Program-made: the position numbers and the translations under genes
Shown: positions 18,060 to 62,800 of the stretch, piece after piece
Numbering within the stretch: position 1 is the first letter of the stretch
Layout of the letters: each line of letters starts with the position of its first letter
NCBI RefSeq assembly: GCF_001677475.2
Contig: NZ_CP015229.1
Strand: one strand, 5' to 3'
Length of the DNA stretch: 64,000 bases
From: Escherichia coli
Lineage (GTDB): Bacteria > Pseudomonadota > Gammaproteobacteria > Enterobacterales > Enterobacteriaceae
The notes under the pieces: generated by a model
Seen by the model: the letters and a program-made list of their open reading frames with translations, nothing else
Told to the model about the DNA's origin: nothing
The model's database searches: none

Positions 18060-18773
18060 TCAGTCCAGCTGTACACCCAGGCGGCGGGCGACGGCTTCAT
18101 AGGCTTCGATCAGGCCACCGAGGCTCTGGCGGAAACGGTCTTTGTCCATTTTCTCCAGCGTTTCTTTGTCCCACAGGCGGCTGCCGTCCGGGGAGAACTC
18201 ATCGCCCAGTACCACTTCACCTTTGTACAGGCCAAACTCCAGTTTAAAGTCGACCAAAATCAGACCAGCATCATCGAACAGTTGTTTCAGCACGTCGTTC
18301 GCTTTGTAGGTCAGCTCTTTCATACGCGCCAGGTTCTCTTTGCTCACCCAGCCAAAGGTTTCGCAGTAAGATTCGTTGACCATCGGATCGTGCATGGCGT
18401 CGTTTTTCAGGAACAGATCGAACAGCGGCGGGTTCAGCTCAATACCTTCTTCGATTCCAAGACGTTTCACCAGAGAGCCAGCAGCACGGTTACGCACGAC
18501 ACACTCAACCGGCACCATATCCAGCTTTTTCACCAGACATTCGGTATCGGAGAGCAGACGCTCCATTTGAGTCGGGATACCCGCTTCAGCCAGTTTGCTC
18601 ATAATGAAGTAGTTGAACTTGTTGTTCACCATACCTTTGCGATCAAACTGCTCAATGCGCGCGCCATCCCCTGCTGACGTATCATTGCGGAATTCGAGCA
18701 CCAACAGGTCCGGGTTTTCCGTGCTGTATACGGTTTTCGCTTTACCACGATACAACTCAGCTTGCTTTTGCAT
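18060..18773 (-). CDS. purC: SAICAR synthetase
   Basis: ORF 18060..18782 trimmed to 237 aa ([16 protein letters not shown]...). Confidence 0.94.
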
Positions 18774-18825: not shown

Positions 18826-18874
18826 GTGCCGGATGTTTTGTCAGATGCGGCAAGAACGCCTTATCCGACCTACG
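18826..18874. repeat. REP-like palindromic element
   Basis: gtgccggatg...gcggcaagaacgccttatccgacctacg in the bamC-purC intergenic region. Confidence 0.55.
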
Positions 18875-18925
18875 TCCGACAAACAAATTTCGTGCGAATT
18901 ACCGCTAAAATCGCGTTTTCCTGCC

Positions 18926-18941
18926 GACGCACACGTTTGCG
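18926..18941 (-). promoter_or_regulatory. PurR operator (pur box) of purC
   Basis: acgcacacgtttgcgt (reverse complement ACGCAAACGTGTGCGT), 15/16 match to palindromic pur box consensus ACGCAAACGTTTGCGT, upstream of purC. Confidence 0.7.
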
Positions 18942-18985
18942 TATCATATCAGAAAAAAGGGCCGGATGACTCCAGCCCTATATTT

Positions 18986-20020
18986 TTACTTGCTAAACGC
19001 AGCCTGGAAGACAGCTACCAGCGCGTCGTTCTGACTCTGAGTCAGAGTATGACCTTTCGGATCGATGAACTGTAGGCTGCTGCGGTTATCTAAATCGCCA
19101 ACCTGCAGTTTATAGTCACCGGATGCCAGGCCTGGATCGCTCGCGCCCAGTTCCTGCCAGTCGCTGTCAGACAGCGGCTTATAAGTTACGGCCATGTTGC
19201 CCTGCGAACGGGTGCTGTCGGTCACTTTCATGCCCACTTTTTCCAGCGCCGCTGGCAGACGTCGCCAAACCACATTGAACGGCCCGCGTACGACCAGCAT
19301 TGGTAAACCGGTGTCATCAGCTGCACTTTGTACGTCCATAGTGGTGGAGGCACGATTTTGCGCAGCGTTCGCGGCGTCAGTGGCAGATTTATCCAGACCG
19401 GCGGAAATAACGTTCATCATCTCCGTGCTGTAACGCTGCATGGAAGCCGCGTCTGCAACCGGTTTGCCCGCCTGTTCCAGGTTCAGCAGTTTAACCGTAA
19501 CCGCCTGCTGATAACCCTGCGGCTTAACAGAGATTTGATAACGACCACGATACTGCTCGTCTTCGTCCAGACGGTTCCATTGTACCCAATCGGTGGTCAG
19601 TGTCTGACCAGCATCATCACGTTGGGTGATGGTGTAGCTTTTCGCCTGCAGCACGCTAACCACCTGCGGCCACAGAGTATTGCCACGACCATTTTCCACC
19701 AGCAATGAAGCGGTATCGCCCGTGAACTGGGTACGCGCGCCAGAAACCAGTGCCAGCGGCTGGGCTGGTGGACGAATGTCCAGCGCCTTACCGACAGCAC
19801 CACTACCGTTGGTCACCGGGATTGCATAATCACCGGAGGTCACCGGCAAAATCATTCCAGCCGGGGCATGAAGCTCCGCAAGCGGTGCCGCTTCCAGGTA
19901 GGCTTCATCACCACTGACCTGACGCTTATAGCGTGAGTCAGAACTACAGGCAGCGAGTAATAAAACAAGCGAAACACCCGCAACCTTTGCCAGGCGCGAC
20001 TTTTGAACAGAGTAAGCCAT
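18986..20020 (-). CDS. bamC: outer membrane protein assembly lipoprotein BamC
   Basis: 344 aa from second Met; lipoprotein signal with lipobox LLAAC. Confidence 0.93.
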
Positions 20021-36022: not shown

Positions 36023-37084
36023 TTAATCTTGCGCGATTTGCCCATCGGGCCAGGCGTGAATCACGGCTTTGATCAGCGTCGCCAACGGAATGGCGAAGAA
36101 TACGCCCCAGAATCCCCACAAACCACCGAAGATCACCACCGATAAAATAATCACCAGCGGATGCAGGTTAACCGCTTCGGAGAACAACACCGGCACTAGC
36201 AGGTTGCCGTCCAGCGCCTGAATGATCAGATACACCGCGAAGCAGCTCCAGAATTCCGTGCCAGCACCAAACTGGAATAGCGCCACGCCAACCACCGGAA
36301 TGGTCACCACAAATGCGCCAATGTACGGAATAAGTACCGAGAAGCCGACCAGCACAGCCAGCAGCAGCGAATAGTTCAGCCCGAAGAGTAAGAATCCCAG
36401 CCAGGTGGCGATCCCCACCACGATCATCTCCAGCACTTTGCCGCGGATATAGTTGGTGATTTGTTGATTCATCTCCTTCCATACCTGTCCTGCCAGTCCA
36501 CGGTTACGTGGCAGCACCCGGCGAACGGCGTTCAGCATCTGCTCTTTGTCTTTCAGCAGGAAGAAGACCATCAATGGTACCAGCACCAGATAGACGGCAA
36601 TGGTCAGCAAACCGACCAGCGAGGCGAGGGAAATTTTCACCACCGAATCGCCCATGGTCAGCATCCGACTGCGCATATTTTCGGCCATTGCATCAATAAT
36701 GCCCGCGTCCATTAACGCCGGATAGCGGCGCGGCAACGTGGCGGCAAAGTCAGAAAGCTTATTGAGCATCCCCGGCATATCGCGGATTAAGTAGATGCCC
36801 TGTTGCCAGGCGATAGGCAGTACCACGAACGCCATCAGTAGCAATATACCGACGAAAACCACCAATACAATCGACGTCGCCCAGCGGCGGGAGCAGCCAA
36901 TAGATTGCAGGCGCACGGTTGGCCATTCCAGCAAATAGGCCAGCACAATAGCCACCAGCAACGGAGCAAGCAGGCCACTAAAGAAAAAGATAATGCCAAA
37001 TCCGGCAACTAAAATAACCAGCAAGGCAATCGCTTCCGGGTCGCTAAAACGGCGGCGATACCATTGCATCAACATTTCGAGCAT
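36023..37084 (-). CDS. perM: AI-2E family permease PerM
   Basis: 353-aa polytopic membrane ORF; K-12 position and length. Confidence 0.9.
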   Translation of the reverse strand: MLEMLMQWYRRRFSDPEAIALLVILVAGFGIIFFFSGLLAPLLVAIVLAYLLEWPTVRLQSIGCSRRWATSIVLVVFVGILLLMAFVVLPIAWQQGIYLIRDMPGMLNKLSDFAATLPRRYPALMDAGIIDAMAENMRSRMLTMGDSVVKISLASLVGLLTIAVYLVLVPLMVFFLLKDKEQMLNAVRRVLPRNRGLAGQVWKEMNQQITNYIRGKVLEMIVVGIATWLGFLLFGLNYSLLLAVLVGFSVLIPYIGAFVVTIPVVGVALFQFGAGTEFWSCFAVYLIIQALDGNLLVPVLFSEAVNLHPLVIILSVVIFGGLWGFWGVFFAIPLATLIKAVIHAWPDGQIAQD

Positions 37085-40073: not shown

Positions 40074-41363
40074 TTATTTGTCTGTTATATCCGCGTCTTC
40101 TGCGTCCAGCACCACTTCTTCAGGGCGCAGCACACTAATCAGTTTGAAGATCAAACTTAAGCCGATACCGACGATGGTCGCCAGCGCCATACCTTTCAAC
40201 TCCGCCGCGCCGATGTTTACCTTCGCGCCACTGACACCGATGATCAAAATCACGGAAGTCAGGATCAGGTTCTGTGCTTTGTTGTAATCCACTTTCGATT
40301 CGATCAAAACACGAATACCGGAAGCCCCGATGACACCATAAAGCAGCAGCGAAACGCCGCCCATCACCGGCAATGGGATCATCTGGATAGCAGCAGCCAG
40401 TTTACCGACGCAGGAAAGCAGGATAGCGAAAATCGCCGCCCCGCCGATAACCCAGGTACTGTAAACACGGGTGATCGCCATCACGCCAATGTTTTCCCCG
40501 TAGGTGGTGTTTGGCGTGGAGCCAAAGAAGCCGGAGATCACGGTCGACAAGCCGTTAGCAAACATCGAACGGTGCAGACCTGGATCGCGCAGCAGATCTT
40601 TTTTGACGATATTAGCCGTTACTACCAGGTGCCCTACGTGTTCGGCAATAACCACTAACGCCGCTGGCAGAATTGTCAGAATGGCAAACCACTCGAAGCG
40701 CGGCGTATAGAGGGTTGGCAGCGCAAACCAGTGAGCATTAATAATCGGCGTGGTATCGACAATTCCCATTGCGAAAGAGAGCGCGTAGCCCACCAGCACG
40801 CCAATTAAAATCGGGATAATTGCCAGGAAACCACGAAACAGCACGGAACCTAAAACCGTAACCGCCAGGGTGGTAATGGAGATGATGATGGTTTTGGAGT
40901 CTGGCGTTTGCCCTTCAGCCGGGAGTAAACCCGCCATACCGGCAGCTACGCCCGCCAGCTCCAGACCGATGACGGCAACGATTGCGCCCATTGCCGCAGG
41001 TGGAAACAGCACGTCCAGCCAGCCGGTCCCCGCTTTCTTCACGATAAAAGAAACCAGGCAGAACAGCACGCCGCACATAATAAAGCCGCCCAGCGCGACT
41101 TCATACCCCAACGGCAACAGTAACAATACCGGTGAAATAAAGGCAAAGCTGGAACCAAGATAAGCCGGAATTTTCCCTTTACAGATGAAGAGATACAGCA
41201 GCGTTCCAATACCGTTAAATAACAGTACAGTCGCCGGGTTAATATGAAATAAGACGGGCACCAGGACGGTTGCACCAAACATGGCGAACAAATGTTGCAA
41301 ACTAAGCGGGATTGTCTGTAAAAGTGGCGGTCTTTCACTCACCCCGATAGCACGGCGCGTCAT
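40074..41363 (-). CDS. uraA: uracil:H+ symporter
   Basis: ORF 40074..41405 trimmed to 429 aa ([15 protein letters not shown]...); NCS2-family membrane protein. Confidence 0.93.
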
Positions 41364-42075: not shown

Positions 42076-42100
42076 ACTCTTTCTCCTTTGAGGGGCAGCC

Positions 42101-42114
42101 ACAAAAAAAATCGA
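42101..42114 (-). promoter_or_regulatory. upp initially transcribed U-tract (UTP-sensitive reiterative transcription site)
   Basis: Minus-strand GATTTTTTTTG lies ~25 nt upstream of the upp RBS. Confidence 0.55.
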
Positions 42115-42319
42115 CGGATTATACCTCCTTTCTTCAAGGCGGCAATATTATTTTCGTTGACTTTAGTCAAAATGATAACGGTTTGAGATAAAGTTATTTT
42201 ATATTCAAATGGTTATGGGAGAAGATTATTCCATCCGAAAACGATCCTTTGCCCTGGTACAAGTATTCTTTCGCCGCGCGCCTGGGGAAAAGACGTGCAA
42301 AAAGGTTGTGTAAAGCAGT

Positions 42320-42335
42320 CTCGCAAACGTTTGCT
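42320..42335 (+). promoter_or_regulatory. PurR operator (pur box) of purMN
   Basis: tcgcaaacgtttgctt, close match to pur box consensus, ~65 bp upstream of purM start. Confidence 0.75.
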
Positions 42336-42381
42336 TTCCCTGTTAGAATTGCGCCGAATTTTATTTTTCTACCGCAAGTAA

Positions 42382-43436
<1,055 letters not shown>

Positions 43437-43437
<1 letters not shown>

Positions 43438-44075
43438 TGAATATTGTGGTGCTTATTTCCGGCAACGGAAGTAATTTACAGGCAATTATTGACGCCTGTA
43501 AAACCAACAAAATTAAAGGCACCGTACGGGCAGTTTTCAGCAATAAGGCCGACGCGTTCGGCCTTGAACGCGCCCGCCAGGCGGGTATTGCAACGCATAC
43601 GCTCATCGCCAGCGCGTTTGACAGTCGTGAAGCCTATGACCGGGAGTTGATTCATGAAATCGACATGTACGCACCCGATGTGGTCGTGCTGGCTGGTTTT
43701 ATGCGCATTCTCAGCCCGGCGTTTGTCTCCCACTATGCCGGGCGTTTGCTGAACATTCACCCTTCTCTGCTGCCGAAATATCCCGGATTACACACCCATC
43801 GTCAGGCGCTGGAAAATGGCGATGAAGAGCACGGTACATCGGTGCATTTCGTCACCGATGAACTGGACGGTGGCCCGGTTATTTTACAGGCGAAAGTCCC
43901 GGTATTTGCTGGTGATACGGAAGATGACATTACCGCCCGCGTGCAAACCCAGGAACACGCTATTTATCCACTGGTGATTAGCTGGTTTGCCGATGGTCGT
44001 CTGAAAATGCACGAAAACGCCGCGTGGCTGGATGGTCAACGTCTGCCGCCGCAGGGCTACGCTGCCGACGAGTAA
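43437..44075 (+). CDS. purN: GAR transformylase
   Basis: 212-aa ORF; ATG overlaps purM stop by 1 nt. Confidence 0.94.
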
Positions 44076-53806: not shown

Positions 53807-55273
53807 TCAGGAGCCCAGACGGTAGTTCGGGGACTCTTTAGTAATGGTCACGTCGTGAACGTGGCTTTCCTGAATGCCCGCACCGCTGATACGTACAAAC
53901 TCCGCTTTAGTACGCAGTTCGTCGATAGTACCACAGCCGGTCAGACCCATACAGGAGCGCAGGCCGCCCATCTGCTGGTGAATGATCTCTTTCAGGCGAC
54001 CTTTATAAGCTACGCGACCTTCGATACCTTCCGGCACCAGTTTGTCGGCTGCGTTATCGCTCTGGAAATAACGGTCAGAGGAACCTTTGGACATCGCGCC
54101 CAGGGAACCCATACCACGGTACGATTTGTAAGAACGGCCCTGGTAGAGTTCAATTTCACCCGGAGATTCTTCAGTACCCGCCAGCATGGAACCCACCATT
54201 ACCGCGCTTGCGCCAGCGGCGATAGCTTTGGCGATGTCACCGGAGAAGCGAATACCACCATCTGCGATAACCGGAATACCTGTGCCTTCCAGCGCTTCAA
54301 CTGCGTCAGCAACGGCAGTGATCTGCGGAACACCTACGCCAGTAACGATACGAGTCGTACAGATAGAACCAGGGCCGATACCGACTTTAACCGCGCTGCA
54401 ACCAGCTTCTGCCAGAGCGCGTGCACCTGCAGCTGTTGCCACGTTGCCGCCGATGATTTGCAGATCCGGATATTTAGCACGGGTTTCACGGATACGTTGC
54501 AGTACACCTTCTGAGTGACCGTGGGAGGAGTCTATCAGCAGAACGTCAACGCCTGCGGCAACCAGCGCATCAACACGCTCTTCGTTACCCGCACCTGCGC
54601 CAACCGCTGCACCAACACGCAGACGGCCTTGCTCGTCTTTACAGGCGTTCGGTTTACGTTCCGCTTTCTGGAAGTCTTTCACGGTGATCATGCCGATCAG
54701 GTGGAATTCGTCATCAACCACCAGCGCTTTTTCAACGCGTTTTTCGTGCATTTTTGCGAGCACAACTTCACGGGCTTCACCTTCACGCACGGTTACCAGA
54801 CGTTCTTTCGGCGTCATGTAAACGCTAACCGGCTGGCTCAGGTCGGTAACAAAACGCACGTCACGACCGGTGATAATACCCACCAGTTCGTTTTCTTCGG
54901 TAACGACCGGATAGCCCGCAAAACCGTTACGCTCGGTCAGTTCTTTCACTTCGCGCAGCGTCGTGGTTGGCAGAACAGTCTGCGGATCAGTCACCACACC
55001 AGATTCGTGTTTTTTCACACGGCGAACTTCTTCTGCCTGGCGTTCAATGGACATGTTTTTGTGGATAAAGCCGATACCGCCTTCCTGAGCCAGAGCAATA
55101 GCCAGGCGCGCTTCCGTTACGGTATCCATTGCTGCGGAAAGCATAGGTATATTCAGACGAATAGTTTTCGTCAGCTGGGTGCTGAGGTCAGCAGTATTCG
55201 GCAGAACAGTAGAGTGAGCAGGAACGAGGAGAACGTCGTCAAACGTCAGAGCTTCTTTAGCGATACGTAGCAT
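53807..55273 (-). CDS. guaB: IMP dehydrogenase
   Basis: ORF 53807..55342 trimmed to 488 aa ([21 protein letters not shown]...); CBS pair and catalytic IGPGSICTT motif. Confidence 0.95.
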
Positions 55274-55404
55274 GGGCAATATCTCGACCAGAGTGGTTAA
55301 TAAATATTGCCGCGGCATTATACAGAGCGTAACCGATTGCATCTACCCCTTTTTGCAAAAAATGCTTGCTATCCCCGAAGGGCGGGTTACTATCGACTGA
55401 ATAA

Positions 55405-59800: not shown

Positions 59801-62800
59801 AGTATCCGGGCTGGTTATCACAGTAAACATCACCGGTAATTTGTTGGATTCCAGGCTCGACTGATAGGCCTGAGCGTACACATTGGTTACCAGGCCTATA
59901 GAATCATCCTGCTTTACCGTAAACGTGGCCGTTCCATCCGCGCCCGTCACCGCATAAAGCAAGATTGATGAACTATCCATTCTTGCCGACGTCCCCGCGG
60001 CGTTGATTACGGTGATAGTTCTGTTCAACATCAGTGTATTCTGGCGATTTGTCGATCCTTCACGTTTGAGAATAAACGGAACATTTGGTACGACATTTCC
60101 CTGCGCATCTTTGGTCACCACGCGAATCACCGCGTCGTCACCTTTTTTCCGTTTTAGTGCGCTGAGGGTTTCGTCAACTTTGACAAATTGTGTCGAATCG
60201 TTCGCTTCGACAATAATTTGGCTGGTCATCGCCACTGGGGTAGCCCGACAGCTTAGCAGACCTATACTGCTTGGCATGATCTCCGATTCATAACCAGTCT
60301 TCAACGAAACCGCTTTAAAATTAAAGGCTTGAGTATAATAGGCGACTGCCGTACTGGAGATATAGGCACGTGATACAGGCCATCCCGTAACGTCATGTAT
60401 TGGCGTGTAACCTTCATCGGCATACAATGACTCAAGTTCATTGTCAGCCGGGACATATCCTGCACCGCAACCATTTACAGATGTGTTGTTCGACTGGTCC
60501 GGCGAGAACAGTGACCATTCCTCTCCATCTTCCTGAAAATAGTTTCGACTAGCTGTAACGGTAAGCTCATCTTGCAATAACGGTCTTTTATAAATAAGCC
60601 CGCCAGCACCGGTCATCGTTTCGGCCATATGCCCCCAGAATTTTGCTTTAGGGGTATCGGGGCTGGTTATCACCGTAAAGACCACCGGAAGCATTGATTT
60701 TACGTTATTATCTGTATCCAGCATGGCGGTCAGTTCGGTTTTTAAACCTGTGGTATTGTCCTGTTTCAGTGCAAGTGTTGTCGTACCATCTGCGCCGGTA
60801 ACGCCATAAATCAGTGCTGTTGTTGAGGAAAAATTACTCTGCGTATTACCCCAGGCATCCGTCACGATGAGCGCGCCTGCTGTCACCGTTGTAGACGCAT
60901 TTGCCCGATTGACGCTAAGGTTACGTTTAAGCGTAAACGCGGTATTTCCCACCGGGTTACCCTGCGCATCTTTAGTGGTCACGCGAACCACGACTTCTTC
61001 CCCTTTTTTCGCTTTGACAACATTATTCGTACTGTCAAATTTTGTAGGGTCCGCAGCCTCAAGAACGATTTGGCTTGCCTTAACGATCGGCGTCGTCTGG
61101 CAGGTAAGCAGTTCTTTTGTGGCCGATGGAATTATCGAACTGGTACCTGAACTGAGATTGACGGCCTTGAAGTCACGCTGTTCCAGACTACTGCTGCCTG
61201 TCGTGCTGGTAAGGTAACTTGAGGCGACGGGCCAGCCCTGAACCGTTTTCATCGCATTGCCGCGGTTAGCTTCATACAATGACTCCAGCCCAACCTGAGA
61301 GGGAACATATTCACTACCGCAACCATTAGAGGATGTGCTTGTCGCCTGAGTTTGGGTAAATTGCGCCCAGTCCTCATTCTCTTCTGCAATCGCTGTTCGA
61401 CCCGACGTACTGGATAACTCTTTCAACAATAATGGGCGCTTAAAGACCGTTCCATCCGCAGCCGTCACCGTTTCCGGCATATGTCCCCACATTTTCGCTT
61501 TATTGCTGTCCGGGCTGGTGACAACGGTAAAAATGGTATCGAGGGTCGCTTTTTTCGTTGTGTCTGAATAGAGCGCGGCGGTCAGCGACGTTTTCGTGCC
61601 ATGGGTATCCGGGCGGGTAATAGTGAGAATTTTAGTGCCATCGCTGCCGGCCATCGCGCTGTATGCTGCGGCGGTATCATTGAGCGAAGTTTCATCCGCC
61701 AGGCCACTATTGATCACAACCGGCGCAACCAGCGCATCACCGCTACCGGCAATGTGTTTTTCGTTTGATCGGGTATAACCATCGCCACGCTTCAGGGTAA
61801 AAGGCATATCACCCAATGGATTGCCCTGAGCATCTTTTACCGTCACCTTCACCTGTAGCGTTTCGCCTTTTTTCAGCTTCGCCGCATTTGCTGCCGCGTT
61901 CCACTGCGCCGGGTCCACCACTTCCAGCGTAATGCTGTTGGCAGGATTGTTAGCCGTCGTCAGGCAACTGACATAAACCGCCGTGCTACCGCCAACGGTC
62001 CGCGCGCCATCGTTGAGGGCTATGGTGTAGTAATGCGGCACCTGATCCGCGGGCGAACTGCTCCAGTAGGGCTGACGCTGCGTTGGCCAACCGTGTACCG
62101 TTTGAACGGCGTTACCGCTGTAAGCATCATAGAGCGCGTTAAGCTGGGAACGGCGTGGGAGCATATTGGCACCACAGCCACCTTTACTGGTGCTGGAAGT
62201 GTTGGCCTGGCTAACGCGCGACCACACTTCGTTATTTTCCGTTAATGTGCCGTCCGGGCTGGACACTTCCGCAGCCAGCCGGGATCGGGCAAAGGTTAAT
62301 GCATCGACGGTAATCGTCTCATCCATATGCCCCCACATCTGCGCGCCAACCGCATCCGGACTGGTGAGCGTAGTGAAAATCACATTGTAATTAACAGTAT
62401 TGGGAATATAGGAGTTTACAGGCGCAATATTCAGCGGCGTCGCTAAGCCCACACCTTGCGGTTGCTTAATTTCCACAGTAGCAAAACCCTGCGCATCCGT
62501 AGTACCTGCATAGACTAAAGACGGTTGCGATGTTCCGTAGAGCGTGCCATTCATCTCGATTGCGCCGCGGGTTGGATCATCGAAACCCGTGGTCTGCCCC
62601 TGACGATTTTTCCCCATATCTTTCGTGATGGTGAACGCGGTATACGGCACGGGCGCATTATTCAAGGCATTAAAGGTGCGTACCGTCATGGTAATCGTTT
62701 CACCCACTTTCGCCTGCGCTCTGCTGCTTGTGGAAACATCATGATCGGTGGTCGCAGCAATCTGGGCGACCATCTCATTGCCCGAACAAGAAAGGTAGTT

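Follow-up and report, generated by a model that had tools for sequence, protein, structure and literature searches.

Two pur boxes that match known PurR operators, at purMN and purC, in a 64-kb segment of the Escherichia coli chromosome

The pur boxes and the promoters in which they lie

Two 16-nt sequences in the 64-kb stretch of Escherichia coli DNA that we analysed (the window), one upstream of purM and one upstream of purC, are very probably (about 95%) the operators through which PurR is known to act on purMN and purC, with the sequence that they have in K-12, and finding them here is correct but ordinary. The window is a segment of the E. coli chromosome with the gene order ypfJ-purC-bamC-dapA ... 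hyf ... perM/bepA-hda-uraA-upp / purMN-ppk-ppx ... guaBA, and both boxes sit in short intergenic regions 5' of pur genes. The purM box lies 64 nt 5' of the GTG start of purM, at the head of an operon composed of purM and purN (42400-44075, + strand). The purC box, which is ACGCACACGTTTGCGT when read along the given strand, lies 154-169 nt 5' of the purC ATG, directly after the bamC terminator. The features on which the argument depends are the following.

42321-42336, + strand: PurR operator (pur box) of purMN, TCGCAAACGTTTGCTT, at -35 to -20 relative to the purM transcription start site (TSS)
42341-42349, + strand: extended -10 of the purMN promoter, TGtTAGAAT, from reading the sequence; its hexamer stops 7 nt short of the published TSS
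42356, + strand: purM TSS (G), transferred from K-12, giving a 44-nt leader
42400 (GTG start)-43437, + strand: purM, from the open reading frame and the RefSeq annotation of matching genomes
43437-44075, + strand: purN, from the open reading frame and the RefSeq annotation of matching genomes
18927-18942, - strand: PurR operator (pur box) of purC, reading ACGCAAACGTGTGCGT on this strand, which is that of purC, at -6 to +10 relative to the purC TSS
18943-18948, - strand: probable -10 hexamer of purC, TATGAT, abutting the box and ending 7 nt before the published TSS
18936, - strand: purC TSS, transferred from K-12; it is an A, the 7th base of the box, and gives a 163-nt leader
18060-18773, - strand: purC coding sequence, with its ATG at 18773, from the open reading frame and annotation
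18958-18979, - strand: intrinsic terminator of bamC, a hairpin (9-bp stem, 6 GC pairs) with a T-run, directly 5' of the purC -10
18828-18875, - strand: REP-like palindromic element in the purC 5' leader, seen in the sequence and as a hairpin in the predicted fold

An earlier note on this DNA had described these two 16-mers as matches to the PurR operator palindrome, at 42320-42335 before purM and at 18926-18941 before purC. Both exist as quoted and the match to the palindrome holds, but each lies 1 nt further right than it had been placed. When up to two mismatches to ACGCAAACGTTTGCGT are allowed, they are the sole matches on both strands of the 64-kb window, the purC box with one mismatch and the purM box with two, so that they fit the PurR consensus at 14-15 of 16 positions. 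The mean number of such sites expected by chance is 0.07, and two were reached in none of 100 dinucleotide-preserving shuffles. If three mismatches are allowed, a third site turns up in a coding region of the window and the excess is no longer striking. As palindromes, the purC box matches at seven of its eight symmetric pairs and the purM box at six of eight, the central 12 nt of the latter, GCAAACGTTTGC, forming a perfect palindrome; the central CpG is kept in both.

A PurR PWM scan, which the earlier note had proposed as a check, put the purC box in first place in the window, at 18.5 bits, and the purM box in third, at 16.8 bits. The matrix was built from 24 published ChIP-derived PurR motifs, with the four sites expected in the window held out. 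The score alone is indecisive, since about 1.4 matches above 14 bits are expected per 64 kb and a score of 17-18 bits is by itself no rarity over such a length. Because this null is weak, the significance of the two boxes rests on the mismatch test, on their position in pur promoters and on their conservation.

The comparison with K-12, proposed in the same place, gave a simple answer: neither the boxes nor their core promoters differ from MG1655 at any base, and they stand at equal distance from their genes; the purM box is also identical to that of strain 536. The earlier note had seen no operator mutation that abolishes the palindrome and neither did we, the boxes being identical to those of K-12. 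Furthermore, the motifs assigned to 'purC' and 'purM-purN' by PurR ChIP-chip in K-12 are exactly these 16-mers (Cho 2011, PMC3159470, Table 1). With adenine added, both peaks reach 2.08, the top enrichment of that table, and without adenine the enrichment drops to 1.52 at purC and 0.98 at purM-purN (Cho 2011, PMC3159470).

The promoter geometry can be read from published K-12 start sites, the surrounding sequence being identical, and it places both boxes over the core promoter or start site of purine genes. For purM, the K-12 TSS is 2,619,175, with a 44-nt leader, and the sequence from -50 to +1 is given (Kim 2012, PMC3415461, supplementary file 2); that whole sequence is identical in the window. 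The -35 of this promoter is poor (TCGCAA) and located inside the box, and 7 nt separate the box from TAGAAT. For purC, the K-12 TSS is 2,595,803, the 5'UTR measures 163 nt and the published sequence closes with ...GATATGATACGCAAA (Kim 2012, PMC3415461, supplementary file 2), and the -10, the box and the TSS do not differ between K-12 and the window. TATGAT is probably the purC -10 hexamer, judging from our reading of the sequence together with this published start, and the -35 region falls within the bamC terminator hairpin (bamC stop codon, 18986-18988). The start sites are presumably the same in this strain as in K-12. That the second box lies 'before purC', as the earlier note put it, is thus true as far as its distance from the ATG goes, but the phrase hides the geometry, since the box spans the transcription start at purC and overlaps the -35 at purM. 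Neither promoter was called by sigma-70 consensus scanning of the window, the purMN promoter being missed by a strict scan; this is expected because the -35 elements are weak and the thresholds need a decent -35.

The purC leader is long because the REP-like element lies inside it. The element is outside the operator, and some close relatives do not have it, so that their box stands at about -67 from the ATG, compared with -169 here. Beyond the REP-like hairpin we found no significant RNA structure in the purC leader (z = -1.08), and a scan of the whole window gave no Rfam match at the gathering threshold. This includes the region around 61800-61890, to which the offset from K-12 would assign sroE, a small RNA located between hisS and ispG. 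On the other side of the purM intergenic region, the upp promoter (42100-42145, - strand) has TTGCCG-16-TATAAT followed by a GATTTTTTTTG initially transcribed region, as in K-12, with one SNP just 5' of the -35; we take the GATTTTTTTTG region to be a control region for UTP-sensitive start-site selection and reiterative transcription. A suspected PurM E-to-G variant near the N-terminus was dropped since the K-12 DNA is the same there.

Conservation within E. coli and across genera

Of 5,426 complete E. coli genomes, about 98-99% carry the core promoters unchanged. The 60-bp purM core recurs exactly in 5,308 of 5,424 genomes, and the 32 nt that hold the purC -10 and box are the same in at least 5,391 of 5,414; in the divergent E. 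coli genomes that we sampled, the boxes are still kept. ETEC1701 (NZ_CP122938.1, locus L004 of our set) carries an IS200C-family element directly 5' of the purC -10, which replaces the bamC-terminator side of the intergenic region and leaves TATGAT and the pur box intact.

For positions 18001-43000, the closest of the 5,426 genomes has only 98.9% identity over 25 kb, although individual strains match short pieces at 100%, the purC upstream region among them. The strain from which the window comes is therefore not among these genomes, and it may be a mosaic or belong to an under-sampled lineage.

Across genera, purM loci were collected with a degenerate pattern of the PurM N-terminal coding sequence, which is blind to the upstream DNA, taking one genome per species (120 loci, 116 usable). 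The arrangement TCGCAAACGTTTGCYT, 7 nt and TAGAAT stands upstream of purM in 93 of these 116 species, and it is seen in Citrobacter, Enterobacter, Klebsiella, Pantoea, Erwinia, Serratia, Yersinia, Dickeya, Pectobacterium, Providencia, Morganella and Budvicia, among others. The length of the spacer is fixed across Enterobacterales, and the PWM scan independently gives the purM box as the best upstream match at a consistent offset. The mean information per position is 1.84 bits in the purM box and 0.29 in the 30 nt of upstream flank, the former being a figure to which the anchoring expression contributed, since TAGAAT and about 10 of the 16 positions in the box were set by it and are conserved by construction. 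Among the positions free of anchoring, the first two of the box and the CTG that precedes TAGAAT are near-invariant as well, and CTGnTAGAAT is nearly invariant in 91 distinct orthologous purM promoters. Aeromonas species (loci L048, L058 and L063, for example) have a variant box, GCGCAAACGATTTCCT, about 23 nt before the purM TAGAAT, compared with 7 nt in Enterobacterales. In the same cross-genus scan, no box was found upstream of purM in Marinobacterium, Nitrincola, Pleionea, Psychrobacter, Tolumonas or Zophobihabitans.

A similar scan of metagenome contigs was made for purC. Where PurC shares at least 92% identity with that of E. coli, the exact 16-mer is there in all 33 contigs, and their flanks vary; at 85-91% PurC identity, most contigs have the variant A[AG]GTAAACGATTGCGT 11 nt downstream of TGGCATAAT. 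Taken together, the boxes are under very strong evolutionary constraint relative to the flanking non-coding DNA.

The surroundings of the purC box differ among lineages in a way that concerns the promoter. Upstream of the box lies the best -10-like hexamer of E. coli (TATGAT) and of a second lineage (TATAGT), and in other lineages the best such hexamer (TGTAAAAT, CATAAT or TAGAAT) lies a few nt downstream of it. These differing hexamers around an invariant 16-mer were seen among loci L130-L249 and also at a Phytobacter locus (L070). A downstream -10 would put the box at about -35 to -18 in such lineages. We consider it possible, and would hold it only tentatively, that the purC operator is a fixed point around which the promoter moved in enterobacterial evolution. 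If this were true, PurR would repress purC by different steric routes across genera, via one unchanged site.

Other PurR-like sites in the window

The earlier note had listed the purM and purC boxes, which are real, but it missed two further sites in the window that have ChIP support in K-12.

55327-55342, - strand: guaBA PurR box, ATGCAATCGGTTACGC on the strand of guaB; PWM 15.0 bits; identical to K-12
37024-37039, - strand: CCGGAAGCGATTGCCT, a weak PurR motif within the 5' coding end of perM (yfgO) and facing bepA (yfgC); PWM 13.7 bits; identical to K-12

The guaBA box is at -32 to -17, between the -35 and TATAAT, with the TSS at about 55310 and the guaB ATG at 55273. The ChIP-chip motif of guaB-guaA is GCGTAACCGATTGCAT (Cho 2011, PMC3159470, Table 1), which is unchanged in the window at 55327-55342, and the guaB promoter and TSS sequence is identical to the published one (Kim 2012, PMC3415461). 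In K-12 this site is bound only with adenine added, at a lower enrichment of 0.84 (Cho 2011, PMC3159470). The motif in perM is the one under the K-12 'yfgO/yfgC' ChIP-chip peak (Cho 2011, PMC3159470, Table 1). The purine-regulon cis elements at purMN, purC, guaBA and perM/bepA are thus unaltered, with no sign of regulatory divergence there.

A different conclusion was reached for a match inside uraA, a minus-strand gene (ACGGCAACGATTGCGC, 40972-40987), which is also present in K-12 and reaches the level of the purM box on the PWM (17.7 bits for the oriented matrix, 14.6 for the symmetrised one). It was rejected as an operator, having no ChIP peak in K-12 (Cho 2011, PMC3159470) and decaying at synonymous sites. 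The site encodes the invariant peptide GAIVAV, and the score is at least 13.9 in 12 of 66 species, the synonymous positions being those that drift. It is most likely a by-product of coding. That this look-alike decays, whereas the intergenic boxes are invariant, supports selection on the boxes as operators. The comparative data thereby give a clean example of phylogenetic footprinting, in which the operators are invariant across genera while the adjoining non-coding DNA and the synonymous sites of the look-alike drift. The matches in hyfD (26533) and hda (39437), found with the PWM or with three mismatches, lie in coding regions and have no ChIP support, and they were treated as chance.

PurR control, rival explanations and known systems

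PurR represses as a dimer, has hypoxanthine and guanine for its corepressors, and blocks the access of polymerase to pur promoters (PMC10912719). On this basis, a LacI-family PurR dimer carrying hypoxanthine or guanine would shut down purMN and purC when purines are plentiful; for K-12, repression that depends on these purines has been reported. Given the positions of the boxes and the known action of PurR, the bound repressor should occlude the start site at purC and, at purMN, the upstream contacts of polymerase. At purMN, PurR on -35 to -20 would occupy the upstream contact surface of RNA polymerase, so that promoter binding would be blocked. At purC, PurR on -6 to +10 would sit over the start site, where it could block either polymerase binding or the formation of the open complex. 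We infer this steric mechanism from established knowledge of PurR and from box positions given by the identity with K-12.

The earlier note had taken the boxes as confirming that PurR control is retained in this strain. The cis half of that statement is sound, the operators being intact and identical to sites bound in K-12, but the whole is overstated, as purR lies outside the window (no PurR homologue was found in the 64 kb; best tblastn E = 1.9). Control is nonetheless very likely retained, which is a strong inference and not a demonstration. It is strong because purR is present at 80% coverage or more in 5,423 of 5,426 complete E. coli genomes, and the gene is presumably present and intact here. 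The converse, that purR has been deleted, interrupted or mutated elsewhere and that the boxes are relics of a control now lost, draws on the location of purR beyond the window and on at least one genome (H78) that matches only 79% of purR; set against that near-universal presence, and against boxes without any decay relative to K-12, it is highly unlikely.

Two further readings concern what the boxes are. They could be palindromes that arose by chance or through other constraints and that regulate nothing: matches at the level of the PWM are not rare in 64 kb, and similar-scoring ones occur in the coding regions of uraA, hyfD and hda. This reading is effectively refuted, and we give it a negligible probability, by the finding of two sites within two mismatches where 0.07 are expected, both in pur promoters, by their identity to ChIP-bound 16-mers, and by their invariance across genera amid varying non-coding flanks, when the uraA match decays. 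It is about as improbable that the boxes are mainly used not by PurR but by another LacI-family regulator with a similar half-site, such as RbsR. RbsR has been reported as an additional repressor of purine synthesis (PMC10912719), and a palindrome with a central CG is an architecture common to LacI-family operators. PurR itself, however, gives its top, adenine-responsive ChIP-chip enrichment at exactly these loci, the boxes fit the PurR-specific consensus, and we found no evidence of other regulators at the purM and purC promoters. Nothing that we found contradicts the explanation of the boxes as PurR operators. With that explanation, the import of the finding beyond annotation is small: it adds no new PurR biology, and the purM and purC operators were already known.

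Among known systems, the PurR of Bacillus and Lactococcus shares with that of E. coli its name and the pathway that it regulates. It is a PRPP-binding protein, not a member of the LacI family, and it has different DNA boxes and PRPP and (p)ppGpp as effectors (PMC10912719); being unrelated to E. coli PurR, this protein and its PurBox are not applicable here. Closer at hand are the operators of purB and purR, which lie inside an open reading frame and block elongation (Cho 2011, PMC3159470). These intragenic sites of the roadblock type share their repressor and their 16-bp motif family with the purM and purC boxes, but the latter overlap a promoter or start site and should therefore block initiation. 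The guaBA operator resembles the purM and purC boxes in its regulon and in being a 16-bp box that overlaps the core promoter, and it differs from them in that ATGCAATCGGTTACGC is a weaker match to the palindrome.

The nearest counterparts are the K-12 operators themselves. At purMN, the window and K-12 agree fully in the 16-mer and the extended -10, in the context of the TSS and in the distance to the GTG, and about 200 nt 5' of the start codon are identical as well; the operator and core promoter are without difference, and a few SNPs lie farther upstream, towards upp. At purC, they share the 16-mer with the TATGAT that abuts it, the base of the TSS and a leader length of 163 nt. The leader differs by four SNPs within its REP-like part and by a single one at +12, and two more SNPs lie in or beside the bamC terminator (-44 and -34); the box and the -10 are free of SNPs.
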